Shown piece by piece: positions 1,634-60,245 of a DNA stretch of 64,000 nucleotides. The stretch lies in the NCBI GenBank assembly GCA_016710075.1, contig JADJLO010000038.1:238137-302136 (forward strand), in the 5' to 3' direction. The translations under genes and the position numbers were made by a program. Position 1 is the first letter of the stretch, and the number at the start of each line of letters is the position of its first letter. The notes beneath the pieces are model-generated. The model made no database searches. It was given only the letters and a program-made list of their open reading frames with translations, and was not told the DNA's origin. The DNA is from Acidobacteriota bacterium. GTDB lineage: Bacteria; Acidobacteriota; Blastocatellia; RBC074.

Positions 1634-1892
1634 TTGTAACTGCTCAGCCCCTGTTCTTTAGATTAAATGGGAATAAAGGTCTTTTTCAACGCCAAGAGAG
1701 CCAAGAGCGCCAAGAGGATTCAGGGAGTGATTCATTATTTACTTTTAAAACCGGCTAAAATCGAGATGTCAGGCCAAATCATGGGCTATCCATCCTTGGC
1801 GTTCTTGGCTCTCTTGGCGTTCTTGGCGTTGAAAAAGACCTTTATTTACACGAAATCCATCAAATACTAAAGACCAGGGCTGAGCAGTTACA
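1634..1892. repeat. nested inverted-repeat element: outer IR GTAACTGCTCAGCCCCTG / CAGGGCTGAGCAGTTAC, inner ~46-bp IR arms built from GCCAAGAG-type repeats (family A hairpin element)
   Basis: Seen directly: ~1634-1653 pairs with ~1875-1892; ~1673-1718 (AATAAAGGTCTTTTTCAACGCCAAGAGAGCCAAGAGCGCCAAGAGGA) pairs with ~1793-1847. A related GTAAYTGCTCAGCCC hairpin occurs at ~48161-48219. Confidence 0.7.
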
Positions 1893-3468: not shown

Positions 3469-3516
3469 CGCCTGATTAACCTCTTTGAACTTTAGACATT
3501 AAACTTTGAACTTCCC

Positions 3517-7008: not shown

Positions 7009-8601
7009 TCAGTTATCTCCCGCGACCATGCTCAGTACGCCCGAGAGCCTGATAGCCTGGTACAAAGCCGGGATCGCCGCTGAAATCAGAATTATAACAG
7101 CCAGGATTTTGGCCGTTGCCATGACAGGCTGCCAGCGCCTCTCCTGTGGAGTCGAGATTCTCGGCACGGCGGCCAGCAGCGGCAGCTTCGCATAATGGGC
7201 CACATCACGAGCGTCACGGATGGTCATCAAAGCCCTGACTTCAAAAGCAGCGGCAGCGATCAGCCCCGAAAGCAAGCCGATAAAGAGAGAGAGCGGGTAG
7301 AGAGCCCTCCTGTTGGGAGATGCCGGGACCTCGGGCAGTCCGGCCGGATCCGACATCCTGAAGGTCTCGCCGCTAAAGTCGTTGATCACCCTGGCGCTGA
7401 ATTTTGCATTGTCTCTCATGGCGAGAAGGTCTTCGTATCTCTTGCGAAGTGTTGTGTAATCCCGTTCGATCCTCGTCGCTTCGGTGGCCAGCAGCGGTGT
7501 GGAACGCAGGCGAGACTGCAGCTCGGCATATTGCCTGTTGGTCTGCTCAAGCTCGGCCTCCTTTCTAATCAGATCTCTTTTGTCCGCTGCGATACGAATC
7601 TCCATCCCCGAGATTTGAGAATTCCCTCTGCGCGCCGATCTTCTGGCCTGGCGATCCTGCTCAATCCTGTTTCTCAGATCGTCCATCTCTTTATTGATTG
7701 ACTCTATCTGGACGCGGACCTTGATTACTTCGGGGTTCTTCTCGGTATAGGTGGTGAGCAGTTGTTTGAGTTGTGATTCAAGGTCGGCGCGTCTCGACCG
7801 GAGTTGTCCCTCGGTCTGCCCCGCTGATACAGGGACATCCGGCATCTCGGAATCCTGGGTTTTCAAAGTGGTCAGCAGTTGCTCATTCGTAGCTGTCTGA
7901 CTGCGCAGCGTATCGATCGACGATTGTTGAGACTGTCTGATCATGCCGAGGCTGTTCATCTGGCCGATCATATTCTGCTCCTGCCCCGGCAGGGCATCCG
8001 GATTTCTGACCAGGTATCCGGCCCGGGCCGACTCGATTTTCTCAAGCTCGCCTTTGACCTCGTTGATTCTCCCTTCCAACTGGTCGATCGTGGTATAAAC
8101 CTGCCGGCGAGTCTCATCAGAGTTGGCATCGATGAATCTGGCCGCCAGTTCCGCCGTCACGTCTCTCACCGTTCGCGGATCGGTCCCCCTGAACGATATC
8201 GAGAAGGCATAGACTCCCGCACTCGCGCTGAAAGGCTTGACCGTGATGTGTCTGAGCATCTCTTCTATCACCAGTTCGATCGGAGCGTTGCGGCGGGCCA
8301 TCTCCTGATAAAGTCCGAACCGGCCGATGATCCTTTGAAGTTCCGTGCGGCTCGTTACCTGCTTCTGAATCGTGCTCAGCCTCGAATTGAGATCTATCTG
8401 ATTGACCGGTTGAACGTATGCGGATGAAACCTTTGGCGGATCGACGATGATCACCGTCGTCGATTCATAGATGTCGGGCAACTTTCTGACGGCATAGCCC
8501 AGAGCCGCAGTCACGATGATAAACGGAACCAGGACGTAGTACCGCCTCACCCACAAAAGCTGCAGATACTCCGCCGGTGTCCTGATTCTTAAAGCCGCCA
8601 T
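7009..8601 (-). CDS. polysaccharide chain-length determinant (Wzz/GumC-family co-polymerase) with long coiled-coil periplasmic region
   Basis: 530 aa; N-terminal TM (YYVLVPFIIVTAALGYAV), Wzz-like start (…IYESTTVIIVDP…), long Q/E/R-rich coiled-coil, C-terminal TM. Confidence 0.75.
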   Translation of the reverse strand: MAALRIRTPAEYLQLLWVRRYYVLVPFIIVTAALGYAVRKLPDIYESTTVIIVDPPKVSSAYVQPVNQIDLNSRLSTIQKQVTSRTELQRIIGRFGLYQEMARRNAPIELVIEEMLRHITVKPFSASAGVYAFSISFRGTDPRTVRDVTAELAARFIDANSDETRRQVYTTIDQLEGRINEVKGELEKIESARAGYLVRNPDALPGQEQNMIGQMNSLGMIRQSQQSSIDTLRSQTATNEQLLTTLKTQDSEMPDVPVSAGQTEGQLRSRRADLESQLKQLLTTYTEKNPEVIKVRVQIESINKEMDDLRNRIEQDRQARRSARRGNSQISGMEIRIAADKRDLIRKEAELEQTNRQYAELQSRLRSTPLLATEATRIERDYTTLRKRYEDLLAMRDNAKFSARVINDFSGETFRMSDPAGLPEVPASPNRRALYPLSLFIGLLSGLIAAAAFEVRALMTIRDARDVAHYAKLPLLAAVPRISTPQERRWQPVMATAKILAVIILISAAIPALYQAIRLSGVLSMVAGDN

Positions 8602-10250: not shown

Positions 10251-10354
10251 AAAATCAACATACCTGACAAATCTCCTTTGAACTTTGAACTTTAAACTTT
10301 AAACTCGATTGTTATCGTATTTGTAACTGGTCAATTTTCGTAGAGGCAGGTTAT

Positions 10355-11272
10355 ATGAGCAGCGCAATCTCAGTGGTTGGTGTCAGCAAGAGTTATGGCG
10401 ACTTCGTAGCCGTCGACAATCTATCCCTTGAAGTCAGGCAGGGCAGCATATTCGGCCTTCTCGGACCGAATGGCGCCGGGAAATCGACGACCATCAGAAT
10501 GATCGTCAACATTACCATGCCTGATTCCGGCGAGATTCGCCTCTTCGGCCGGCAGATGAATTCCAGTCTTCAGGAGCGTGTCGGCTACCTCCCGGAAGAT
10601 CGCGGCATGTATAAAAAGATGAAGATCGGCGAGCAGTTGGCGTTCTTCGCCGAGCTCAAAGGTCTTTCGCATGAGACGGCTCAAAAGAGAATCGACCAGT
10701 GGCTCGGCAGAATTGAGATGTCGGAGTGGAAGAACAAGAAATGGGAAGAGCTCTCCAAGGGAATGCAGCAAAAGATCCAGTTCGTATCGACGATCCTTCA
10801 TTCGCCTGAACTCGTGATCCTCGATGAGCCGTTTTCGGGGCTCGATCCGGTCAGTGCGGGGCTGCTCAAAGAGATCGTTCAGGAGCTGAGACAACAAAAC
10901 AAGACCATTATCTTCTCGACGCACCTCATGGAACAGGCCGAAGAACTCTGCGACGAGATCTGCCTGATCAATCACGGTCATAAAGTTCTTGGCGGATCCG
11001 TTCGCGAGATCAAAAGGGGCTTCGGCTGGCGCTATGTCGCCATCGACGGCGACAATCTCGACGATGTCCTGAACAATTCCCCACTGGTCAGCAAGGTGGT
11101 TGACCGGCGCGATCACAAGGATGTCACCATGGCCGAAGGCCATGATCCTCAGGAACTGCTCAAATACCTGGTCTCGGCCGGCGCCAATGTAACTCGCTTC
11201 GAAATGGTCGCGCCGTCACTCAACGAAATCTTCATCGAGAGCGTCACCAGAGTCTCCACCAGGAGCGCATGA
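10355..11272 (+). CDS. ABC transporter ATP-binding protein (ABC-2 type, with C-terminal accessory domain)
   Basis: Walker A GPNGAGKST, signature LSKGMQQK, Walker B LVILDEPFSGLD, H-loop; no permease gene adjacent. Confidence 0.85.
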   Translation: MSSAISVVGVSKSYGDFVAVDNLSLEVRQGSIFGLLGPNGAGKSTTIRMIVNITMPDSGEIRLFGRQMNSSLQERVGYLPEDRGMYKKMKIGEQLAFFAELKGLSHETAQKRIDQWLGRIEMSEWKNKKWEELSKGMQQKIQFVSTILHSPELVILDEPFSGLDPVSAGLLKEIVQELRQQNKTIIFSTHLMEQAEELCDEICLINHGHKVLGGSVREIKRGFGWRYVAIDGDNLDDVLNNSPLVSKVVDRRDHKDVTMAEGHDPQELLKYLVSAGANVTRFEMVAPSLNEIFIESVTRVSTRSA

Positions 11273-16884: not shown

Positions 16885-16959
16885 AAATAAGGCATTGAAT
16901 GCTAAAGGGCGAGGATGAATATTCATCCCGCTCCCTTTTTAGCATTCAATGCCTTATTT
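16885..16959. terminator. nested near-perfect hairpin between convergent genes (likely bidirectional intrinsic terminator)
   Basis: AAATAAGGCATTGAATGCTAAAGGG…CCCTTTTTAGCATTCAATGCCTTATTT with inner palindrome GGATGAATATTCATCC; flanked by A/T runs on both sides. Confidence 0.6.
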
Positions 16960-19075: not shown

Positions 19076-20494
19076 TTAGACTTCCCTGATCAGCGGCAGC
19101 CTGACAATAAATGTCGTTCCTTTTCCTGGCTCGCTCTGAGCGACAATCTTTCCTGCATGTGAATCGACAATCCATTTAACTATGGACAAGCCAAGGCCGA
19201 AACCGGAAGCGGACCGATCGCTGGTTTTGGCTGAACGGCGGAAGAATCGGTCAAAGATGTGTGGCAGGTCTTCGGGAGGAATGCCTCGACCGGAATCGGA
19301 GACTGTCAGAACAGCGTCATCCCCTTCAGCCTTCAATCCAAGGATAATTGAGCCGCGCTGCTCGGTATATTTGATGGCATTATCGAGCAGGTTGAGAAGC
19401 AGTTGTTTGATCCGGTGCATATCGGCATTAATGATGACCTTACCCTGAGGCTGATGATAGGTAAGGGTCTGGTCCCGCTGATCAGCCAGAGGCAGGATGT
19501 ATTCGGTCATCTTGCTGCACAGGTCATCGAGATCCATCGGCTCGCATTTCAGCTCTACCTTGCCGGCATCTGCCCGGGCAAGCATCAGCAGGTCTTCAAC
19601 AAGTCTGGAGAGCCTGACAATCTCCTCCAGATTCGATGTCAGAACGCGCTGGTACTCTTCTTTGCCGCGCTCACGGCGAAGCGTGATTTCAATATCAGCC
19701 CGCATGACGGCCAGCGGCGTGCGAAGTTCATGCGAGGCATCGGAGGTGAACTGTTTCTGTCTCTCGAAGGCCGCCTGCAGCCGGGAGATCATATGATTGA
19801 AAGTTGCGGCGAGACGGCCGATCTCGTCCATCCTGGCCGAGGCCGGCACTCTTTCGGAAAGATCTCCGGCCGCTCCAATCTGCTCCGCTGCCGTGGTGAT
19901 GCGATCAACTGGCCGCAAAGCCTGATTGGCCAGCAGCAGCCCTCCGTAGCTCCCCAGCAACAAGACAGCGGGAATTGCCAGTCCAAGCACAAGCAGCAAC
20001 CGCTTTCTTGCAATATCAAGGGCTTCCAGCGACTGCCCCAGCCTAATGAAGTAGGTGCCGTTGCCTTCCTGATCAGGCACACGCCTTGTGGCGACTCTCA
20101 TCGGTTCGCCGGATTCAAGTTCCATCGTTTTGAAATAGGTGCGGCCTGTTTCCAGTTTCATCAGTGCATCTATTTCGACAGGGATTCTATCCTGGGGAGT
20201 GGCCAGCATCTCATCCGTCACCATTCCACTTTCGTCAATCAATTGGGTCAGGTGCGGCGAGATCTGCAGCAACTGCTCTTCGTGAGCTGTATTGCCGGGA
20301 TGATCGGGTATGTCCGCATCGGCAACGTGATCCATGCTCCGCTCGATCTTCGTTATCTGGAACTCCAGGGTCTCGTCGATCGTCATGACCAGACTTCGCG
20401 AAAGATACCAGTAAATCGATATTCCAAAGACAAGCAGAATGACCGTCAGGATGGCCAGATAATAGAGGGTGAGCTTGATTCTTAGTGAGAGCAT
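19076..20494 (-). CDS. sensor histidine kinase (HAMP-HisKA-HATPase_c)
   Basis: Two TM segments, H-box …ASHELRTPL…, N/G1/G2 boxes (…LLDNAIKYT…, …DSGRGIP…, …GFGLGLSIV…). Track start is TTG at 20503; ATG at 20494. Confidence 0.85.
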   Translation of the reverse strand: MLSLRIKLTLYYLAILTVILLVFGISIYWYLSRSLVMTIDETLEFQITKIERSMDHVADADIPDHPGNTAHEEQLLQISPHLTQLIDESGMVTDEMLATPQDRIPVEIDALMKLETGRTYFKTMELESGEPMRVATRRVPDQEGNGTYFIRLGQSLEALDIARKRLLLVLGLAIPAVLLLGSYGGLLLANQALRPVDRITTAAEQIGAAGDLSERVPASARMDEIGRLAATFNHMISRLQAAFERQKQFTSDASHELRTPLAVMRADIEITLRRERGKEEYQRVLTSNLEEIVRLSRLVEDLLMLARADAGKVELKCEPMDLDDLCSKMTEYILPLADQRDQTLTYHQPQGKVIINADMHRIKQLLLNLLDNAIKYTEQRGSIILGLKAEGDDAVLTVSDSGRGIPPEDLPHIFDRFFRRSAKTSDRSASGFGLGLSIVKWIVDSHAGKIVAQSEPGKGTTFIVRLPLIREV

Positions 20495-20511
20495 ATAGGG
20501 CAAACTGTTCA

Positions 20512-20737
20512 GATTACGAAACTGAAGAAAGAGAGATTACCAAACAGACGAAATAAACGAAACAGACGAAAAAAACCAGACGATGGTCAAAGGGATTAAT
20601 AAAGCAATAAGCACTGGTTTTATGTTTATCGGGGTATTTTCGCCCGACCAACGTCTGGAATTTTTTCGTCTGTTTCGTTTATTTCGTCTGTTTGGTAATC
20701 TCTCTTCTTCTGTAATCTCTCTTCCATCTTCGTAATC
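20512..20737. repeat. family B hairpin element (terminal GATTACGAAAC…; arms rich in AACAGACGAAATAAACGAAACAGACG) inserted between response-regulator and histidine-kinase genes
   Basis: Seen: left arm ~20512-20582 and right arm ~20652-20737 are imperfect reverse complements (…CAAACAGACGAAATAAACGAAACAGACGAAAAAAACCAGACG… vs …CGTCTGGAATTTTTTCGTCTGTTTCGTTTATTTCGTCTGTTTGG…). Related copies at ~23210 and ~25727. Confidence 0.7.
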
Positions 20738-20750
20738 CGGCTTTCCTGGA

Positions 20751-21467
20751 TCAGGAAGCCTTCGATTCGACAATGATGCTTGAATCCACCGTCGGGGTCT
20801 TGAACATGTAGCCGACTCCACGGATGGTATGAATCAATTTCGGCTCGAATTGACGGTCAATCTTGTTGCGAAGGTAATTGATGTATACGTCGATGACATT
20901 GGTCAGAGTGTCGAACGTCTCTTCCCAGACCTTTTCCGAGAGCACTTCGCGGGAGAGGATTTCATCCGGGTGGCGCATGAAATATTCGAGCAGGGCGAAC
21001 TCTTTTCCGGTCAGCTGGACCTCAATGCCGGCGCGCGACGCACGGCGATTGATGAGATTCAAATACAAATCTCCGGTCTGGATCCTGGTTGTATCTTCAG
21101 GCTGTGTCCGTCTGAGCAGGGCCCTTATTCTTGCCACCAGTTCGGTAAAGGCGAACGGCTTGGTCAGATAATCGTCCGCACCGCTGTCCAATCCTTTGAC
21201 TTTCATCTCGGTACTGTCCTGTGCGGTGAGGATGAGGATCGGTGTCTTGATCCCTTCGCTGCGAAGATCCCGCGCAATATCAAGTCCATCGCGTCCCGGC
21301 AATCCGAGATCCAGCACAATCAGATCATGACCGCCTGATTTTGCCGCCTGTGATCCGGTATCTCCGTCGTACGCCGTATCGACTTCCATCCCCTCTTCCT
21401 CAAGACCACGCTTGATCAGGTCGGCCATCTTCTGCTCGTCTTCAATTACTAATACGCGCATTGCCAT
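20751..21467 (-). CDS. OmpR-family DNA-binding response regulator
   Basis: 238 aa; receiver domain (…VLVIEDE…DLIVLDLGLPGRDGL…) and winged-helix C-terminal domain. Confidence 0.9.
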   Translation of the reverse strand: MAMRVLVIEDEQKMADLIKRGLEEEGMEVDTAYDGDTGSQAAKSGGHDLIVLDLGLPGRDGLDIARDLRSEGIKTPILILTAQDSTEMKVKGLDSGADDYLTKPFAFTELVARIRALLRRTQPEDTTRIQTGDLYLNLINRRASRAGIEVQLTGKEFALLEYFMRHPDEILSREVLSEKVWEETFDTLTNVIDVYINYLRNKIDRQFEPKLIHTIRGVGYMFKTPTVDSSIIVESKAS

Positions 21468-21715
21468 TTATTTAAGCTCCTTATGAGAATTGCTGGAAGA
21501 TTTTTCTTTGACCCTGCATTTGTCGACTCAAGGGAGTCTGCCAAGATGCGAGGATATGTCGGGGTATTGGGGATCGTATAACTAACCTTATACATCATCT
21601 TTTATTCGGGGCAAGAATAATTTGAAATATCTCATGGGGGGGCGATTCGGAACTGGATTATACGACAAATTCGCCGAAGATTAAATTTTTTTCTAATGAT
21701 CTCGAAAAATTCTAT

Positions 21716-22060
21716 CTAATTATTATGAAGATTAGGCTTAACAGCGCCGGCAAGCCATTCAAGATAGTCAATTGAGCCGGCAATGATGGGAAGAGCGATA
21801 ATTTCCGGTGTCTGGTAGGGGTGATATTGTTTGATGAAAGATTCAAGAAGGGGAAAAGTGGGTGAAGTAGTTTTGATAATAATCAGGAATTCGTCCGATT
21901 GCTGAACTGAGGATTGCCAGCGATAGATCGATTTGATGCGGGGAAGAATCTGGACGCAGGCTGCGAGATGAGCGTCGACGAGCAGGGAGGCGAGTTTTTC
22001 GGCATCCTCAATATTTTCAAGGGTGGTGAGGACAACCATGCATTCACTGATTTCCGACAT
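21716..22060 (-). CDS. cutA: divalent-cation tolerance protein CutA
   Basis: C-terminal 114 aa of track ORF 21716..22225 (MSEISECMVVLTTLENIEDAEKLASLLVDAHLAACVQILP…) matches CutA1 family; start moved to the internal ATG that avoids overlap with the upstream gene. Confidence 0.7.
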   Translation of the reverse strand: MSEISECMVVLTTLENIEDAEKLASLLVDAHLAACVQILPRIKSIYRWQSSVQQSDEFLIIIKTTSPTFPLLESFIKQYHPYQTPEIIALPIIAGSIDYLEWLAGAVKPNLHNN

Positions 22061-22334
22061 CCTGATCCTCCGTGAGGGTTTGGGACTCGTCCTGGAAGAA
22101 GGCGTCATAGAGTTCCATGGCTTTTTCGAGTTCGGCGGCGGGGACGAGGAGTTGTATCTCTGAAAAGCCGCCGACCATTGGCAGAGGGTCCAATCCACCG
22201 AAGTTCCCTCCCTGAAGTACGGCATCGATGCCGTTGTTCTGGAGCAATTCGTGCACCTGACCGGCTTCGCTCATATTGGCGAAATGAGCGAGCGTCACGA
22301 ATTCTGCGTCATTATCGTTTTTATTTTTGGTCAT
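22044..22334 (-). CDS. small DUF2007-like protein (putative signal-transducing protein)
   Basis: 96-aa ORF, acidic, compact; family call is from sequence resemblance only. Confidence 0.45.
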   Translation of the reverse strand: MTKNKNDNDAEFVTLAHFANMSEAGQVHELLQNNGIDAVLQGGNFGGLDPLPMVGGFSEIQLLVPAAELEKAMELYDAFFQDESQTLTEDQDVGNQ

Positions 22335-22337
22335 GAT

Positions 22338-23195
22338 TCATTCTCCTGACAACCATCTACCTTTAAAGACGGCCCGGGCTTCGCCGGTCTGAAGGACTTT
22401 TCCATTATCGAGCCATTGGATGTGAAGTTCGCCTGCGACAGTGACTACAGTGACCATGTTTTCGATGAGGCCGTTGAGCATGGAAGCTATGGCGGCGGCG
22501 CAGGAACCCGTGCCCGAGGAGAGGGTCTCACCGCATCCGCGCTCCCAGAATCTGACTTCGATGCGGTCACGGTTGACCACACGGATGAACTCGACATTAG
22601 TGCGGTCCGGAAATGACTGATGCATTTCGATTTTTGCGCCGAGCTCACGCCAGTCAATGTCGTCAAAGTCGTCAACGAAGATGCTGCAATGAGGATTGCC
22701 CATCGAGACCGAGGTGAATTCAAAGGTCCGGCCATCGACTACAAGCTTTTGCCGGACAACTTTATCAGATGGCGATTCGAGCAGCACGGGGATTTCAGCG
22801 CTTTTGAGTTTCGGAACTCCCATATCCGTCTCGAACAGGAACCCGTCCTGAAGCCGCTCAACCGGGCGCAGTGACTTGATACCGGCGCCGGTGGCTATGC
22901 TTACCCGAGGTTGATCCCACCCTTCGACAAGATAAAGATATGCGGCGACGCAGCGGGTTCCATTCCCGGAAATCGGCGTCTCACCGCCGTCGGAATTGAA
23001 CAGTCTCACCTCAAAATCGGCGCCGTCGACGCCCGTGCGATCGAGCAGCAACTCGACTCCATCGGCGCCGGCGCCGAAATGCCGGTCACAGATACGCCGC
23101 GAGAAAGCCTCGAAATCGTCAGTCAACGATCTCAATTCCGATTCGCGCATGATCAGAAAATCATTGCCCAGAGCCTGGAATTTGTGAAACTTCAT
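22338..23195 (-). CDS. dapF: diaminopimelate epimerase
   Basis: 285 aa; N-terminal FxKMxGxGNDF-type block (MKFHKFQALGNDFLI) and second catalytic Cys region (…GNPHCSIFVDD…). Confidence 0.9.
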   Translation of the reverse strand: MKFHKFQALGNDFLIMRESELRSLTDDFEAFSRRICDRHFGAGADGVELLLDRTGVDGADFEVRLFNSDGGETPISGNGTRCVAAYLYLVEGWDQPRVSIATGAGIKSLRPVERLQDGFLFETDMGVPKLKSAEIPVLLESPSDKVVRQKLVVDGRTFEFTSVSMGNPHCSIFVDDFDDIDWRELGAKIEMHQSFPDRTNVEFIRVVNRDRIEVRFWERGCGETLSSGTGSCAAAIASMLNGLIENMVTVVTVAGELHIQWLDNGKVLQTGEARAVFKGRWLSGE

Positions 23196-23209
23196 GTCAC
23201 TGAAGAAAA

Positions 23210-23343
23210 GATTACGAAACAGATCAATGCAGAATGCGAAATGGTTCGAATGCGCATTTTGGATTGAATGACTGGAAATGCCCAGCGGCTTTAATATCCT
23301 GAATCAACATTCTGCATTCTTCATTCTGCATTCTGCATTCTAC
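23210..23343. repeat. family B-related element: GATTACGAAACAGA terminus plus CAGAATGCGAA / tandem CATTCTG x4 repeats
   Basis: Seen: …GATTACGAAACAGATCAATGCAGAATGCGAAATGG… and …CAACATTCTGCATTCTTCATTCTGCATTCTGCATTCTAC…; lies between dapF start and the PfkB gene stop. Confidence 0.55.
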
Positions 23344-24279
23344 TTATATCTCGAAATGAGTGAAATCCTTGAACAGGTGGAAGCGATCGCGGATTTCAGA
23401 CGGCTGGAGCTTCAACAAGCGGTCGCAACTGAACTCCTCGACATTGTAGGAGGCCATGACCGATCCGTAAATCACCGCGCGACGCAGGGTCGTCTCATCG
23501 ATCTTGTCGGACTGGGCGAGATAACCCATAAATCCTCCGGCGAAGCTGTCACCAGCGCCGGTCGGATCGAAAACGCTGTCCAGCGGGAATGCCGGCGTCG
23601 CAAAATAGGTGTCTCTGGTGAAGAAAGCGGCGCCGTATTCACCGCGCTTGACGACGAGCATGCTGGGACCGAGAGTCAGGATCTTCCTTGCGGCGCGGAT
23701 GAGGTTGGGTTCCTGGGCGAGTTCCCGGGCCTCGGCATCGTTGATGATCAGGGCATCGACCACCGCAATCGTCTTGAGCAACTCATCGCGGCTGCTCTCG
23801 ATCCAGTAATTCATGGTATCCATGGCGACAAAGCGTGCGTCTACTTGTTCGCGCACTTCCCGCTGCAGGCCCGGCTGAATATTGGCGAGAAAGAGAAACG
23901 GCGATTTCCTTGCGGTCGGGGAAAGCTCGGGCTTGAATTCGGCAAAGACGTTGAGTTGCGTGTCGAGAGTGCGCGCGGTATTCAGATCGAAACCGTATTC
24001 TCCAACCCAGCGGAAGGTCCGGCCTCCGCTGATTCGCTGCAGGTTATCGGTATTGATCTTCCTTTCGCGAAAAACCGCCTCATCATCGTGCGAAAAATCA
24101 TCGCCGACGACTGCGACCACCGCAACATCGGTAAAAAAAGACGATGAGACCGAAAAGTGCAGTGCGGCGCCCCCCAGACTCCGTTCCCGAACCCCGAAGG
24201 GCGTCTTGATCGAATCGATGGCGACCGACCCGACAACTAACAATGGTGCCGGTGCGGCAGGTGTGGTCGGTATTGTCAT
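23344..24279 (-). CDS. PfkB-family carbohydrate/nucleoside kinase
   Basis: 311 aa; ribokinase-like fold signature …GGAALHFSVSSS… N-terminal and …DPTGAGDSFAGGF… anion-hole/ATP motif near C-terminus. Confidence 0.8.
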   Translation of the reverse strand: MTIPTTPAAPAPLLVVGSVAIDSIKTPFGVRERSLGGAALHFSVSSSFFTDVAVVAVVGDDFSHDDEAVFRERKINTDNLQRISGGRTFRWVGEYGFDLNTARTLDTQLNVFAEFKPELSPTARKSPFLFLANIQPGLQREVREQVDARFVAMDTMNYWIESSRDELLKTIAVVDALIINDAEARELAQEPNLIRAARKILTLGPSMLVVKRGEYGAAFFTRDTYFATPAFPLDSVFDPTGAGDSFAGGFMGYLAQSDKIDETTLRRAVIYGSVMASYNVEEFSCDRLLKLQPSEIRDRFHLFKDFTHFEI

Positions 24280-24286
24280 TAAAAAA

Positions 24287-24766
24287 CTATCCCTTCTTAT
24301 CCTTGTTTTGAGTCTTCGCTTCTTCCAGCCTCTTCTGTACGTCGGCTTTCAATGCGCTGTCCGGATATTCCTTCGTCACTCTGGTCCAGTACTGGATGGC
24401 CTTTTGTCCTGATCTCCCATCCTCTTTGTAGACCTCACCGAGCATGAAATAGACATCATCCGTCCGGCCAAAATTCGGATTGCTGTCAAGAATCTCCATC
24501 AGCCTGCCTTCAACGGCCTTATTGAGACGCTCCCAGCCATCCTTGTCTTTTTTGTCGGGCTTTCGTTTGTAGAAGTAGTATTTGGCCACTTCGAGGTTGT
24601 GATATGACTGCTTTTCGAGCTCAGGGTCACTTGGCAGCGATACCGGTCCGCGACCCGGCCCCTGCTGGATGGACGAAACCGGAACTGATGCCGCAGCAAC
24701 AACATTGAACAGCGCCAGTACCCCTGAAAATAGAATCGATAACCTGATGAATGAACGAGGTTTCAT
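24287..24766 (-). CDS. secreted hypothetical protein (possible TPR/lipoprotein)
   Basis: 159 aa with signal peptide and Lys-rich soluble domain. Confidence 0.45.
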   Translation of the reverse strand: MKPRSFIRLSILFSGVLALFNVVAAASVPVSSIQQGPGRGPVSLPSDPELEKQSYHNLEVAKYYFYKRKPDKKDKDGWERLNKAVEGRLMEILDSNPNFGRTDDVYFMLGEVYKEDGRSGQKAIQYWTRVTKEYPDSALKADVQKRLEEAKTQNKDKKG

Positions 24767-24804
24767 ACAACCTTACCTCTTTTTGAGTTAAAAAAATTTA
24801 TTCC

Positions 24805-25674
24805 CTATTCACCGACGTATTTGCCGATGATCGCATTCAGCTTTTTCTTTGTTGCCGCCGGAATAGCCTCACGCTGTGTGAGTATCGCATTTTTGAGCGC
24901 CGATGAATGCCCGCACTCGCGTCGGCTGCCTGTAAGCCGGTTGACTGCCTCGCGGATGATCTTCTGGGCATTGACCGCATTTTTATTGAGATACTCGATA
25001 ATCATATCGATTGTGACGGCGTCGTGTTCGGGGTGCCAGCAGTCGTAATCGGTCACCAAGGCCATGGTGGCATAGCAGATTTCGGCTACGCGAGCGAGCT
25101 TCGCTTCCTGCAGATTGGTCATTCCGATGACATCCATTCCCCAGGTTCTGTAGAGACGGGATTCCGCCAGTGTCGAGAAGGCGGGCCCTTCCATATTTAG
25201 ATACGTGCCGCCGCGATGTATTTTTACCCCGATCGATTCGCCGGCATCGGCAATGACATTGCAGAGGTCGTCACAAACCGGATGCGCAAAGGTGATGTGA
25301 GCGACCACGCCCTCGCCGAAGAATGTCGAGACACGCCCGCGCGTGCGGTCGAAGAACTGGTCGGGAACGACAATGTCTGTCGGCGCATACTGCTCCTGAA
25401 GCGAGCCGACCGCTGAAGCCGAAATAATCCATTCGACTCCGAGCAGCTTCATCGCATAAATGTTGGCCCTGAACGGCAGCTCTGTCGGCATGAGGCGGTG
25501 CCCGCGCCCGTGCCGTGCGAGAAACGCAACCGGAGTCCCGTCAAGCGTCCCAAGTATCAGATTGTCCGAAGGCTTGCCGAATGGAGTATCAATGCTGATT
25601 TCACGAACATCGCTCAGCCCCTCCATCTGATAAAGCCCGCTGCCTCCAATGATTCCTATTGTTGCCTTTTCCAT
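24805..25674 (-). CDS. mtnP: S-methyl-5'-thioadenosine phosphorylase
   Basis: 289 aa; …[10 protein letters not shown]… phosphate-binding start and PNP/MTAP family blocks. Confidence 0.9.
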
Positions 25675-25726
25675 TTTCCCTCTAAAGCGATTGTTTCTGA
25701 TGCCGGTGGCCGGTGGAATGAGACAG

Positions 25727-25879
25727 GATTACGAAACAGACGGAATAAACGAAACAAACGAAAAAACTGACGGAGATAAAAGTCCTGGTTCTTCTGCTGT
25801 TCGTTTATTTTGAAGATGACTCTCACTGAACGCATGAGAATCTTTCGTTTGTTTCGTTTATTCCGTCTGTTTCGTAATC
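25727..25879. repeat. family B hairpin element (GATTACGAAACAGACGGAATAAACGAAACAAACGAAA … TTTCGTTTGTTTCGTTTATTCCGTCTGTTTCGTAATC)
   Basis: Seen: near-perfect ~37-bp inverted arms ~25727-25764 and ~25844-25879 with ~80-bp loop; shares terminus and core with the 20512-20737 element. Confidence 0.75.
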
Positions 25880-25884
25880 TATCT

Positions 25885-25926
25885 TTCCTCTGGCTTTCCT
25901 CTGGCGTTCCTCTGGCTTTCCTCTGG
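25885..25926. repeat. tandem 10/11-bp repeat TTCCTCTGGC(K) x4 immediately adjacent to the family B element
   Basis: Seen: TTTCCTCTGGCTTTCCTCTGGCGTTCCTCTGGCTTTCCTCTGG. Confidence 0.8.
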
Positions 25927-25946
25927 ATCGGAATGCTTACTCCGAT

Positions 25947-27173
25947 TTACTTTTTCTCTTTCGAGTCCATTTGTTTGTTCAGGTTCGGAACTGCACCGGA
26001 ACGGTTAGGATCGAATCCGGGAATCTTGACTGGAAAATCAGCGGGCACTTCCACCTTGTATTTGAGGGAGGCGTCTTCGAGTGCTCGTTTGACCTTTTCA
26101 TCTATCATCTTCCGCTCGAAGCTCTGAGCCTCGGTAGTGCTGACATAGATGTGGCGAGCTTTGATCTCATCGACCGGTTCAGGTTTGGGGGTTGGCGCAG
26201 CGGCTCCCTTGTTCGCGTCGGCGCCGGCCGCAGGGGTTGGAGCAGGGGCCGGGATGGCCTTGCGCTTGTCGTCGACGCGGACGATATGGAATCCGAAGCT
26301 GGTCTTGATCAGTTCAGTTGAGACCTGCCCCTTTTCCATGGAGAAAGCGGCCTTTTCAAAATCCGGATCCATCTTTCCCTTCGAGAACCAGTCGAGATCA
26401 CCGCCGCGACCGCGGGTTCCATCGTCATTGAACTCGTCGGCGAGCTTCTCAAAACTCTCTCCCTTCTTGAGCCTGTCAAGAAGCGTCTGGGCATTTGCCT
26501 TGAGCTTTTCAATGTCGGCCTCAGGGTGTTCTGCGAGGTATTTCGCCTTATCCGCATCCGAGGGTTTGAGCTTATCTTCAAGCGATTCGGTGTAGAGGTT
26601 CGCAAGCAGATTGGCCTTGCTGATCTTGAGCTGGACCTTGCTGATCGCTTCTTTATCGAGGTTCGCCTGGCGCGCCCGCTGCGCCCTGACCATCAATTCT
26701 CCCCACTGCTGTTTGAGCTGTTCCTTCTGTTCGTCGGAGCCCTGCTCCTTTCTCCCCTCACTGACCATCTTGTAATCCTGTTCGAATTGCGCCTTGTGCG
26801 TATCGCAATAGCCATTGACCTCTTCCTGGGAGATAGTCACTTCAGGATTTCGCTTGGTGTACTCGGTGGCAAGCATCTGCTCAGTGCTCAGGGCAAAACG
26901 ATTTTTAAACTTCTCAGTCTTGTGAATGCCTTCCGCTTCCGCGGCCTGGGCCAGTGCAAAAGCCTGCTTGAATGTCTGGATAAGCTGTTTGCGCTGCCCA
27001 TCATTCTGGCCCAGCATTCTCTTCTGGCTGTCATTAAGCGATTCGGCCAGCGTTGAAAGCTCGGCGGACTCCAGTTTTGCGAATTCGCTTTTGAAGATAA
27101 AGCCGCAAGACTGTATCGACGCGAAGATCGCTATCAATGAGATTGATAATATTGCTTTACTTATGGATTTCAA
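25947..27173 (-). CDS. periplasmic peptidyl-prolyl cis-trans isomerase (SurA/PpiD-like chaperone domain + parvulin domain)
   Basis: 408 aa; signal peptide, coiled chaperone-like region, C-terminal parvulin block (…ARHIYVST…FGFHIVRVDDKR…). Track start is TTG. Confidence 0.7.
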   Translation of the reverse strand: MKSISKAILSISLIAIFASIQSCGFIFKSEFAKLESAELSTLAESLNDSQKRMLGQNDGQRKQLIQTFKQAFALAQAAEAEGIHKTEKFKNRFALSTEQMLATEYTKRNPEVTISQEEVNGYCDTHKAQFEQDYKMVSEGRKEQGSDEQKEQLKQQWGELMVRAQRARQANLDKEAISKVQLKISKANLLANLYTESLEDKLKPSDADKAKYLAEHPEADIEKLKANAQTLLDRLKKGESFEKLADEFNDDGTRGRGGDLDWFSKGKMDPDFEKAAFSMEKGQVSTELIKTSFGFHIVRVDDKRKAIPAPAPTPAAGADANKGAAAPTPKPEPVDEIKARHIYVSTTEAQSFERKMIDEKVKRALEDASLKYKVEVPADFPVKIPGFDPNRSGAVPNLNKQMDSKEKK

Positions 27174-28708: not shown

Positions 28709-28915
28709 TAGTGGCCGGTTACCATGATTCGTCTGATCTTGACGCGATTTCCGCGTCCGAAACAAGTTTTTAAATATAACCGTAAACCGTTTGAAATTCC
28801 ACCTGTGTGCGCCGTTTAAAGTTTCGGGTGCAAAGATTCGCCAATTACAGGTCAAACCTCTTTTAACTTTGAACATTAAACTTTAAACTGCCTTGGAGGA
28901 GGCCTTCGAGGAGAC

Positions 28916-48143: not shown

Positions 48144-48160
48144 AAAAAAGTTGTAATTGC

Positions 48161-48219
48161 TCAGCCCCCATCTTCAAATGTTCAAGAAGATGGGGGCTGA
48201 GCAATTACAAAAAGCTTAA
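48161..48219 (-). terminator. perfect 25-bp stem hairpin (family A core GTAATTGCTCAGCCCCC) followed on the minus strand by a T-run; intrinsic-terminator-like between the deacetylase and FemAB-like genes
   Basis: TTGTAATTGCTCAGCCCCCATCTTC aaatgttca GAAGATGGGGGCTGAGCAATTACAA; minus-strand 3' flank reads CTTTTTTATG. Confidence 0.6.
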
Positions 48220-48235
48220 AGTTTAAACTTTTCTC

Positions 48236-59330: not shown

Positions 59331-60245
59331 ATGAACCATCTTCCACAAGAAGAACCCGGGGCACAAGAAGAGCCCGGGGCCGCAGATCAGACCGGGCCGG
59401 ATCTAACAGATCAAGCAGATCCAACAGATCAGGCAGATCAGGCAGATCAGGCAGATCCAATCGAAGCTTCGATAAAAGATCAAAAAAATGCCCGGGACGA
59501 GCGGATTGAAACAGGCATCAAACCAATGTCATCTCTGGCATCAACCGCCGGCTCAAATTTTGGTTCAAAGGACAGGGAGTTGAAGACAGAGAATCCGGCG
59601 CTGTCAGGCGAACAGCCAGAGATGGCAGATCAGGCAGAAAAGCCCGGTCCGGTCGCTGATAAAATCGCCGATAAAATCGACGATCACGCGCTGCTCGAAG
59701 CGACGCGCAACGGTGATGAGGATGCCTTCCAGGAACTTGTGAGACGCTACCGTAATCAGATAACCAATTACGTCTACAGGATGTTGAATGATTACGACAG
59801 GGCGGTTGACATTGCGCAGGAAACTTTCGTCAGGGTTTATATGCATGCCGACAGATATCAGGCAACATATAATTTCTCGACATACATCTACCGGATCGCA
59901 TACAACCTCGCGATCACGGAACTGCGGCAGAGAAAACGAAGAAGGCTGATACCGCTGCCGACTTTCTTTTCGGACAAGGACAGCCAGGAGATAGAGGTTG
60001 AGCTTCCAGATCAGAAGCAGGTTCTGGCAGATGACGCGATGATCGATGACGAGAGACGTCGTGCGGTCTCAAAGGCAATAGCGAGCCTGCCGGATATTTA
60101 CAGAGCCCCGCTGGTGCTCTGCGATATTGAAGAAAAGAGCTACGAAGAGATCTCTGAAATTCTTGGATTGCCGGCCGGAACGGTGAAATCCCGTATCAAC
60201 CGGGCCAGGAATCTTCTGAAAGAAAAACTCAGAGAGTTTATTTAG
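59331..60245 (+). CDS. ECF-type sigma-70 family RNA polymerase sigma factor with ~115-aa acidic N-terminal extension containing DQA tandem repeats
   Basis: Region 2 (…FQELVRRYRNQITNYVYRML…AQETFVRVY…YIYRIAYNLAITELRQRKRR…) and region 4 (…SYEEISEILGLPAGTVKSRINRARNLLKEKL…); N-terminus …GPDLTDQADPTDQADQADQADPIE…. Confidence 0.85.
   Translation: MNHLPQEEPGAQEEPGAADQTGPDLTDQADPTDQADQADQADPIEASIKDQKNARDERIETGIKPMSSLASTAGSNFGSKDRELKTENPALSGEQPEMADQAEKPGPVADKIADKIDDHALLEATRNGDEDAFQELVRRYRNQITNYVYRMLNDYDRAVDIAQETFVRVYMHADRYQATYNFSTYIYRIAYNLAITELRQRKRRRLIPLPTFFSDKDSQEIEVELPDQKQVLADDAMIDDERRRAVSKAIASLPDIYRAPLVLCDIEEKSYEEISEILGLPAGTVKSRINRARNLLKEKLREFI
59406..59457 (+). repeat. tandem 9-bp repeats (CAGATCAGG-type, about five units) encoding the DQADQADQAD tract
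   Basis: Seen: CAGATCAAGCAGATCCAACAGATCAGGCAGATCAGGCAGATCAGGCAGATCC. Confidence 0.8.

Follow-up and report, generated by a model that had tools for sequence, protein, structure and literature searches.

The window considered here is the whole stretch of 64,000 nucleotides (nt) from an Acidobacteriota bacterium of the class Blastocatellia (assembly GCA_016710075.1, contig JADJLO010000038.1, positions 238,137 to 302,136). Homologues of a histidine kinase encoded in it likewise place it in this class. Between 17 and 29 kb of the window every gene lies on the minus strand, in the order rotamase, methylthioadenosine (MTA)/purine nucleoside phosphorylase (PNP), tetratricopeptide repeat (TPR) protein, PfkB kinase, DapF, DUF2007, CutA1, response regulator (RR) and histidine kinase (HK). 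Three sequences flagged earlier, labelled E1, E2 and E3, occupy the RR-HK, PfkB-DapF and rotamase-PNP gaps, respectively, and a further element, E4, was found by a scan of the whole window (Table 1). E1 and E3, the main subject of this analysis, are long and perfect hairpins, and they are probably copies of a previously undescribed family of interspersed palindromic repeats in Blastocatellia.

Table 1. Positions of the elements, related repeats and adjacent genes in the window.
Feature	Position	Strand	Remarks
HAMP/HisKA/HATPase sensor histidine kinase (HK) gene	19076..20494	-	downstream of E1
E1 with outer imperfect extension	20512..20737	.	~22-nt tandem duplications of element end
E1 core hairpin	20529..20706	.	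A-rich arm 20529-20574, T-rich arm 20661-20706, loop 20575-20660
OmpR-family response regulator (RR) gene	20751..21467	-	PF00072, PF00486; upstream of E1
Solo family terminal fragment GAAGAAAAGATTACGAAACAGA	23202..23224	+	one end of E2; nhmmer only E = 0.31
E2 proper, weak hairpin	23226..23341	.	arms are (AGAATGC)/(CATTCTG) heptamer arrays
MTA/purine nucleoside phosphorylase (PNP) gene	24805..25674	-	downstream of E3
E3 core hairpin	25727..25879	.	arms 25727-25763 and 25843-25879, loop 25764-25842
11-mer tandem array, CTTTCCTCTGG x4	25883..25926	.	abuts E3
PpiC-type rotamase gene	25947..27173	-	upstream of E3
E4, nested hairpin of the same architectural class	1635..1892	.	whole-window scan
Perfect hairpin, 25-nt arms TTGTAATTGCTCAGCCCCCATCTTC, 10-nt loop	48151-48210		between two minus-strand genes

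Structure of the elements in the window

The arms of E1 are 46 nt long and those of E3 37 nt, in both cases 100% complementary, with 86 and 79 nt, respectively, between them. The E1 loop contains an inner 13-bp stem (20576-20588 with 20646-20658). The arms of the two elements are 93% identical, and every one of the three differences is matched in the partner arm. Each arm consists of four tandem 9-mers (ACGAAAYAR), in the order ACGAAACAG ACGAAATAA ACGAAACAG ACGAAAAAA and preceded by GAAGAGAGATT; according to Tandem Repeats Finder (TRF), both arms have a period of 9 (and 18). The two loops are mutually unrelated. The motif GATTACGAAACAGAC (≤ 2 mismatches) has six matches in the window against 0.13 expected from shuffles, and AAACGAAACAGACG has six against 0.40; all of these matches are within E1-E3.

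The outer extension of E1 consists of the units GATTACGAAAC-GAAGAGAGA (20512-20534 on one side, 20701-20737 on the other), the number of which varies among the window and the strains L001, L019 and L087 described below. The 11-mer array beside E3 looks like an expansion of the purine-rich leader of the element. Folded as RNA, the intergenic transcript of E1 reaches -123.9 kcal/mol (z = -15) and that of E3 -103.6 kcal/mol (z = -10). The base of the predicted E1 RNA structure ends a few nt before the HK start codon, which itself lies ~17 nt past the outermost E1 repeat.

E2 (23202-23341) is chimeric, joining a 22-nt fragment of the family to a hairpin of a separate repeat family built of a different heptamer. 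The family part comprises only ~22 nt (23202-23223, 86%), and this terminal fragment is kept in all four strains that cover it. The own arms of E2 are 18 nt long and 83-89% complementary, its heptamer count differs in L087, and its fold barely beats shuffles (-41.3 kcal/mol, z = -2.1).

The original prediction, made from the sequence of this stretch, had described E1, E2 and E3 as three copies of one family of elements resembling miniature inverted-repeat transposable elements (MITEs), with shared termini and long near-perfect inverted arms, each carrying its own short tandem repeat and all lying in gaps between co-directional genes. The placement is borne out for all three, and the tandem repeats are genuine (CTTTCCTCTGG four times at 25883-25926, CATTCTG 4.9 times at 23308-23341). 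The long arms hold for E1 and E3 and not for E2, and the folding of transcripts, which had been proposed as a check, divides the elements in the same way. Within the window, the shared motifs are confined to the three elements. The ends are not clean: the E1 arm reads GATTACC, and the outer copies of GATTACGAA are part of the 22-nt tandem duplications of the E1 end. E1 and E3 are therefore confirmed as homologous hairpins and as a genuine feature, and E2 is not confirmed as a full third copy.

Dispersal of the arm family

One genome per species was searched for an exact 22-mer of the arm, and the matches listed amount to 16 loci. Here and below, scans of public collections give lower bounds, and the counts are of matches listed and not of copies per genome. 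Ten of the 16 are loci in metagenome-assembled genomes (MAGs) of Blastocatellia/Acidobacteria, at unrelated positions, and in eight of these ten the hairpin is complete, its arms being ~50 nt and its loop 15-25 nt long. An 8-kb locus may contain as many as two hairpins, or one hairpin together with a solo arm; solo arms are seen at L010b and L015b in Blastocatellia. The arms are ~90% identical across Blastocatellia MAGs. A metagenome scan with the arm variant of the window's lineage yielded at least four further copies, and in one locus (L028) arm and loop are tandemly duplicated. The proposal that E1 and E3 belong to a dispersed repeat family, and are not a locus-specific regulatory sequence, is thus upheld by unrelated loci in many Blastocatellia genomes.

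The repeat unit of the family is ~45-50 nt long and consists of a purine-rich leader, GAAGAGAGAT, followed by four 9-mers with the consensus ACGGAACAG-ACGGAATAA-ACGAAACAA-ACGGAAA. In a complete element, an arbitrary spacer of 15-90 nt separates two such units that face each other as inverted repeats, so that either strand, as DNA or RNA, is able to fold into a hairpin of 40-60 bp. The conserved unit begins at (G)AAGAGAGAT, and beyond this start nothing is common to the copies. The arms in the species of the window read ACGAAAC...ACGAAA, while those in other genera read ACGGAAC...ACGGAAA. Alignment scores between the loops of different copies do not exceed 16, in contrast to 51-74 for orthologous loops. 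A long-loop MITE core shared by E1, E3, L027 and L028 was considered and rejected, the loops being unrelated.

The hairpins are found in tight gaps between co-directional, convergent (L008) and divergent (L012) genes; the gene contexts of L003-L018 rest on rough calls of open reading frames (ORFs). Their neighbours are housekeeping genes, for example those for MurB, penicillin-binding protein (PBP), DAHP synthase and an extracytoplasmic function (ECF) sigma factor, and Pfam searches of the neighbours returned only housekeeping and polysaccharide genes.

No match to Rfam was obtained at gathering scores in the window and nine related loci. At E ≤ 1 over 20450-26000, the search returned only generic plant miRNA-precursor hairpins, with 44-45 bits against cut-offs of 150-211. 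A full-text literature search with four arm sequences returned no paper containing them. Resemblance to integron attC sites, CRISPR, parS and the SOS box, judged from sequence, was dropped because no consensus fits. The arm 22-mer had no match in the viral contigs searched, and there is therefore no sign of phage carriage; matches of the 9-mer GCCAAGAG in viral contigs were rejected as coding low-complexity repeats and not hairpins.

Among the matches outside Acidobacteria, at least one (L014) is a chance match in a coding low-complexity sequence. An invariant and unpaired 29-mer, TGTTTCGTTTATTTCGTCTGTTTCGTTTA, with the same 9-mer pattern as the T-rich arm, occurs in Rhodospirillaceae and Reyranella MAGs (L006 6558-6594, L007 3472-3511, L009 163-197, L011 4045-4082, L017 3017-3052). 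The 29-mer has TGCGAC in front of it, as well as the palindrome GCAACAWTGTTGC at three of the five loci, and has no Rfam match; searches of the alphaproteobacterial loci in Rfam gave nothing meaningful. A shared factor, horizontal transfer and convergence are candidates for its tie to the acidobacterial family.

Orthologous gaps in related genera

Four syntenic relatives (L022, L025, L026 and L090), in which HK is ~71% and PNP ~85% identical to that of the window, permit the comparison of orthologous gaps. The RR-HK gap is 221-256 nt in the species of the window and 75-79 nt in the relatives, where it holds an unrelated GC-rich hairpin (~-44 kcal/mol). The rotamase-PNP gap is 238-272 nt against 82-117 nt, with a canonical GC hairpin followed by a T-run in L025 and another unrelated hairpin in L090. 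The PfkB-DapF gap is 148-163 nt against 20 nt, and no hairpin is seen in it in the relatives. A search of the relatives with a profile of the arms detected no family sequence in any of the three gaps.

E1, E2 and E3 are thus absent from all four relatives at the orthologous sites. Since the gene order is the same and the gaps are short and free of the family, it follows that the three sequences were gained in the lineage of the window. The original prediction had stated that confinement of the motif to the three sites, together with the same sequence at the orthologous loci of relatives without empty sites, would speak for a conserved regulatory sequence; the comparison, now made, gave the reverse.

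The hairpins in the gaps of the relatives were located at L022 2517-2595, L025 9926-10000 and L090 5884-6000, and some of them have arms resembling short tandem units (GGGGNGAC). In the RR-HK and rotamase-PNP gaps, the position of a hairpin is conserved while its sequence turns over.

Changes among strains

Four strains cover E1-E3, namely, the window, L001 (= L088; GCA_963852515.1), L087 (GCA_016711965.1) and L019 (JGI); E3 is also present on a fifth contig, L089. The tree obtained from substitution identities over 8 kb is (L019,(window,(L001,L087))), its total length being ~0.04. Loop orientations, taken from short-read metagenome assemblies, differ among the strains. The E1 loop has one orientation in the window and L019 and is inverted in L001 and L087, two strains that have a 12-nt deletion in common. 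For E3, the window, L001, L087 and L089 agree in loop orientation, and L019 has the loop inverted. Loops aligned in the matching orientation score 51-65, as against 5-8 in the opposite one. On the strain tree, each element has a single inversion. Asymmetric bases adjacent to the arms invert together with the loop, and the end points of the inversions are therefore inside the arms.

The arms change in concert. On the branch of the window, E1 has changed from GATTACG/CGTAATC to GATTACC/GGTAATC (G:C to C:G in both arms), and on the branch of L001, L087 and L089, E3 has changed from GATTACG/CGTAATC to GATGACG/CGTCATC (T:A to G:C in both arms). These two pairing-restoring double transversions compare with 0.014 expected under independent substitution (P about 1e-4). 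Among 14 copies from several genera, 19 of the 45 stem pairs have changed on both sides, a number reached by none of 500 shuffles. The stem positions that are not Watson-Crick paired comprise, on the transcribed strand, 13 G-U and 10 A-C, an uninformative difference without excess of G-U.

Repeat numbers and arm lengths also vary. The right arm of E1 in L019 has lost exactly one 18-nt unit, the E3 arm of the same strain is shortened and carries uncompensated changes, and the E3 arm of L087 is truncated. The 11-mer array beside E3 has four copies in the window, three in L001, L087 and L089, and two in L019. These differences point to slippage acting on the tandem units.

Polymerase template switching is documented to homogenise the arms of inverted repeats and to invert the spacers between them (PMC5941160, PMC8604942). 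The concerted arms, the loop inversions, the changes in unit number and the lack of a G-U excess together indicate processes at the level of DNA, and selection on an RNA helix is not needed for the pattern of arm correction and inversion.

E4 and other repeats of the window

The outer arms of E4 are TGTAACTGCTCAGCCCC, and its inner arms, each of 55 nt (1661-1715 and 1803-1857), are composed of GCCAAGAGN 9-mers and enclose an 87-nt loop. The whole composite (window 1636-1892) is absent from the 98.8%-identical strain L032 (GCA_016711965.1), where the empty site lies at ~11069-11070 with the junction GATAAAG|AAAATT. In the window the insert is flanked on each side by a 3-bp AAG. BLAST coordinates and inspection by eye served to read the junction, and the site could have arisen by insertion with a 3-bp duplication or by microhomology-mediated deletion. 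The outer arms of E4 have a relative of their own family in the hairpin at 48151-48210, which stands alone there and the arm of which has one exact IMG/VR match (L077) among the matches listed.

An exact 19-nt match to the heptamer array of E2, (AGAATGC)n, is present in at least 44 IMG/VR viral contigs. In two of these, of ~62% GC, (AGAATGC)n forms perfect hairpins several times per contig (L059 5419-5482, 7443-7505 and 9937-10014; L066 133-189 and 4751-4827). Some of the IMG/VR hairpins are nested in outer arms of (GGGGGTGA)n, and elsewhere the arrays are solo.

Another heptamer array, (CTTTRAA)x4, is present at 3483-3513, 10276-10305 and 28860-28889 (also ~48213-48230), that is, in three or four intergenic gaps and in both orientations relative to the genes; the unit composition of the array at 10276 differs in strain L032. 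The genome of the window seems to be rich in repeats resembling the short tandemly repeated repetitive (STRR) sequences of cyanobacteria. An intergenic hairpin at 16885-16959 (AAATAAGGCATTGAATGCTAAAGGG...), with 29-nt arms (90% complementary) and a 17-nt loop, is conserved in L001 and unrelated to the other families. Tandem repeats at 59344-59460 (18-nt and 9-nt; CAGATCAGG x5.7) fall within the N-terminal part of the ORF for an ECF-type sigma factor (59331-60245); these are coding repeats and stand outside the hairpin families. Relative to L032, the window lacks 237 nt at ~3292 inside a polysaccharide-export (Poly_export/SLBB) gene and has 81 extra nt at 7544-7624 inside a coding region, both differences being of in-frame size.

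Origin and maintenance of the hairpins

The family is dispersed, has been gained at loci in the lineage of the window, possesses lineage-specific arm variants and shows decay of some of its copies; copying from arm to arm, inversion of spacers and slippage of repeats are the ways in which it evolves. The preferred explanation, to which a probability of about 0.6 is assigned, is that E1 and E3 belong to a mobile interspersed hairpin family resembling repetitive extragenic palindromic (REP), MITE and STRR elements. They would spread as non-autonomous DNA, as REP doublets forming hairpins (REPINs), MITEs or STRR elements do, by means of an enzyme encoded elsewhere or through a route of replication or repair. 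Mobility of this kind is likely in view of the dispersal, the lineage-specific gains and the lineage-specific arm variants, from which we infer it. The unrelated loops between conserved arms suggest that the arm, and not the whole hairpin, may be the propagating unit. Template switching of the polymerase between the arms would keep them perfectly complementary and now and then flip the loop.

Under the same explanation, effects on host operons would be by-products of placing a perfect duplex of ~46 bp in a polycistronic mRNA. A perfect RNA duplex of 46 bp is a typical substrate of RNase III. Candidate effects on the RR-HK operon are cleavage by RNase III that would uncouple the fates of the RR and HK mRNAs, pausing or partial termination of RNA polymerase on the U-rich 3' arm, and occlusion of the translation start of the kinase. 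Such an effect on the operon is plausible and probably incidental: the distribution of the family indicates that regulation is not why the family exists. Since the relatives keep some hairpin in the RR-HK gap, a hairpin there may be tolerated or even useful.

Several observations weigh against mobility as the explanation of E1 and E3. Pfam scans found no transposase or recombinase domain in the 64-kb window. No Y1/HUH-like ORF was found in ~370 kb of Blastocatellia DNA when all stop-to-stop ORFs were searched by phmmer with TnpA sequences of IS200 and IS608, a weak test, with no match below E = 0.2. No direct repeat that would represent a target-site duplication was seen around ~20 copies aligned at their ends. 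Simple copy-and-paste of whole elements does not predict unrelated loops. An arm identity of ~90% across genera with ~70% protein identity appears unusually high for selfish repeats, and a host factor could constrain the arm sequence. No empty site within the species was seen for E1 or E3; presence and absence contrast only between genera, where the junctions are unreadable and insertion is not strictly separable from loss. The filling of the same intergenic slots by other hairpins or a terminator in the relatives hints that a hairpin at these slots may be useful. Finally, the loop orientations are those of short-read assemblies and not of reads.

Another explanation holds that the hairpins are under selection as RNAs that act in cis (as intercistronic RNase III sites, attenuators or bidirectional terminators) and that their spread is recruitment for this role. 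The very stable predicted structures of E1 and E3, the covariation of stem pairs and the base of the E1 structure within a few nt of the kinase start codon agree with it, and the unrelated hairpins or terminator in the RR-HK and rotamase-PNP gaps of the relatives imply that these slots habitually hold a hairpin. However, an RNA helix under selection is at odds with the absence of a G-U preference on the transcribed strand, with recent compensated changes that are transversion pairs, for which no wobble intermediate is possible, and with arms truncated in some strains without sign of constraint. Copies also lie in divergent and convergent gaps, and the PfkB-DapF and E4 sites are without a hairpin in relatives. 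The stems of E1 and E3 do not resemble intrinsic terminators, being AT-rich, 37-46 bp long and without a trailing T-run, and the scan found no terminator-like site in either element. Selection on the RNA is therefore considered unlikely, and it is equally doubtful that the hairpins set the relative expression of adjacent cistrons, for example, a low HK:RR ratio.

The occurrence of a segment between perfect inverted repeats in both orientations, among strains only 1-3% diverged and independently in E1 and E3, would also be expected of invertons, in which phase variation of the downstream gene would result from the turning of the loop by a site-specific recombinase that acts on the arms. Against such a switch, a scan for sigma-70-like promoters and terminators found none in the E1 or E3 loops, the overall counts being at the level of shuffles, and no recombinase gene is present in the 64-kb window. 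The loops are unrelated and, in other genera, only 15-25 nt long, too short for a switchable signal; the arms are far longer than the core sites of recombinases need to be; and the single inversion of each element on the strain tree is explicable by rare template switches. Invertons are accordingly a very unlikely explanation. The arms have also been considered as arrays of iterated sites for a DNA- or RNA-binding protein (a ribbon-helix-helix (RHH)-type regulator, a nucleoid protein, Hfq or S1), with the hairpin secondary. The conservation of the unit across genera, the solo arms at L010b and L015b and the unpaired, invariant 29-nt stretch of the T-rich arm in the five Rhodospirillaceae/Reyranella loci are in line with it. 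Independent binding sites, however, would not be expected to deviate from the consensus together, as both arms do; a period of 9 bp does not keep in phase with the turns of the DNA helix, the copies are placed and oriented inconsistently with respect to promoters and start codons, and the matches outside Acidobacteria include the coding chance match mentioned above. Protein binding as the primary role is accordingly very unlikely, a minor possibility kept in view by the unpaired copies in Alphaproteobacteria. That the pattern is an artefact of assembly or of chance is extremely improbable. The short, independent metagenome contigs L002, L020 and L031 end at the outer edge of E1 to within a few nt, from which it is clear that the inverted repeats do disturb assemblers, but E1 and E3 have the same flanks in four or five independent assemblies (NCBI, JGI, ENA), the motif counts are far above those of shuffles, and the inverted loops carry their own substitutions and deletions common to sister strains.

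A more specific form of the mobile-family explanation, which is tentative and rather improbable, is that the arms are recognition sites of a dedicated, Blastocatellia-wide enzyme (a RAYT/TIRYT-like HUH protein, an IS110-like recombinase or a new one) that copies, nests and flips the hairpins. If it were true, the family would represent a new, vertically persisting replicator system outside Proteobacteria, with an arm motif that reaches Alphaproteobacteria, and systems like REPIN-RAYT would be extended to a new phylum. Loop flipping could then be programmed and give rise to cell-to-cell differences in expression, for example, of the kinase.

Implications

Acidobacteria abound in soil; almost no genetics exists for them, and their repeats are poorly described. 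The family provides a recognisable, class-wide marker of intergenic DNA, and it breaks short-read assemblies exactly at the edges of the elements. It also offers an unusually clear natural case of template-switch evolution on long palindromes, in which, within ~2% divergence, arms have been corrected by double transversions and an 80-nt spacer has been inverted. Annotators should not take the hairpin between RR and HK for a conserved riboregulator.

Comparison with known repeat systems

In REPIN systems, a single-copy Y1/HUH transposase gene is flanked by repeats in the same genome. REP sequences, bacterial interspersed mosaic elements (BIMEs) and REPINs are associated with RAYT proteins in Proteobacteria, and families of terminal inverted repeats (TIRs) flank TIRYT tyrosine transposases, one group of which is from Acidobacteria (PMC3733652, PMC3116915). 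The REP unit is a short (20-40 nt) imperfect palindrome with GTAG or CGTC at one end (PMC3733652). The family described here resembles REPs and REPINs in being extragenic and of high copy number, with two inverted units that form a long hairpin and undergo compensatory changes, spacers of 20-100 bp that vary in sequence and length, and no target-site duplication. Dimers nested in other palindromes, solo units and persistence across related species are likewise common to both. Unlike a REP, the Blastocatellia unit is 45-50 nt long, is built of tandem 9-mers, and is neither palindromic nor equipped with a GTAG or CGTC tag as defined for REPs (PMC3733652): the arms are almost without T and do not pair with themselves, and the ends are GAAGAGAGAT.../...ATCTCTCTTC. 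No RAYT/TIRYT gene flanked by the repeats was seen in the window or in ~370 kb of related loci, and the arms are ~90% conserved across genera, while a REP is as a rule specific to one species.

Bacterial MITEs (Correia/NEMIS, ERIC, RUP, Nezha) are non-coding elements of 100-200 bp with long terminal inverted repeats, which compare with the arms of 37-55 nt on elements of 110-190 bp found here. They are intergenic, co-transcribed, fold into hairpins that RNase III can cleave, and display presence/absence polymorphism, as the present elements do in part. The classical hallmarks implied by the name MITE-like, which the original prediction had used, are nevertheless missing: the family has no target-site duplication (a possible 3-bp AAG repeat is seen only at the E4 composite, which is unrelated), no internal sequence conserved among copies, no cognate transposase in the window or ~370 kb of related DNA, and no identified parent insertion sequence (IS) with matching ends.

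STRR sequences of cyanobacteria were reportedly treated by Mazel et al. in 1990. Their short tandem units are 7 bp long and give rise to hairpins, one such case lying in the hupS-hupL gap (PMC2670836). Both STRR and the present family comprise arrays of short tandem units in intergenic or intercistronic gaps, often as inverted pairs that form hairpins, and solo arms and changes of whole units between strains are found here as well. Several unit families coexist in one genome in both cases, the window also holding (AGAATGC)n, (GCCAAGAGN)n, (CTTTRAA)n and the 11-mer array. For STRR a role in transcript stability has been suggested. The present family differs in phylum and in its 9-nt units, which, with a fixed order of four variants and a conserved leader, make a defined 45-nt element.

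Quasipalindrome correction (the Ripley model; PMC5941160, PMC8604942) predicts the copying of mismatches from arm to arm, perfect arms, and the inversion of whole spacers with end points inside the arms, all of which are seen here. It is a mutational process and not an element family, and the documented arms are mostly < 20 bp with spacers of a few bp, in contrast to arms of 37-46 bp and spacers of 79-86 bp in E1 and E3. Foldback (FB) transposons are eukaryotic, of kilobase scale and sometimes with a transposase; they also have long inverted arms of short tandem repeats around a variable centre, and there is no evidence of their relatedness to the Blastocatellia family. The best-supported description is that the family behaves like REP dimers or REPINs, MITEs and cyanobacterial STRR hairpins and fits no definition of theirs; it is an undescribed family of a familiar kind of element.

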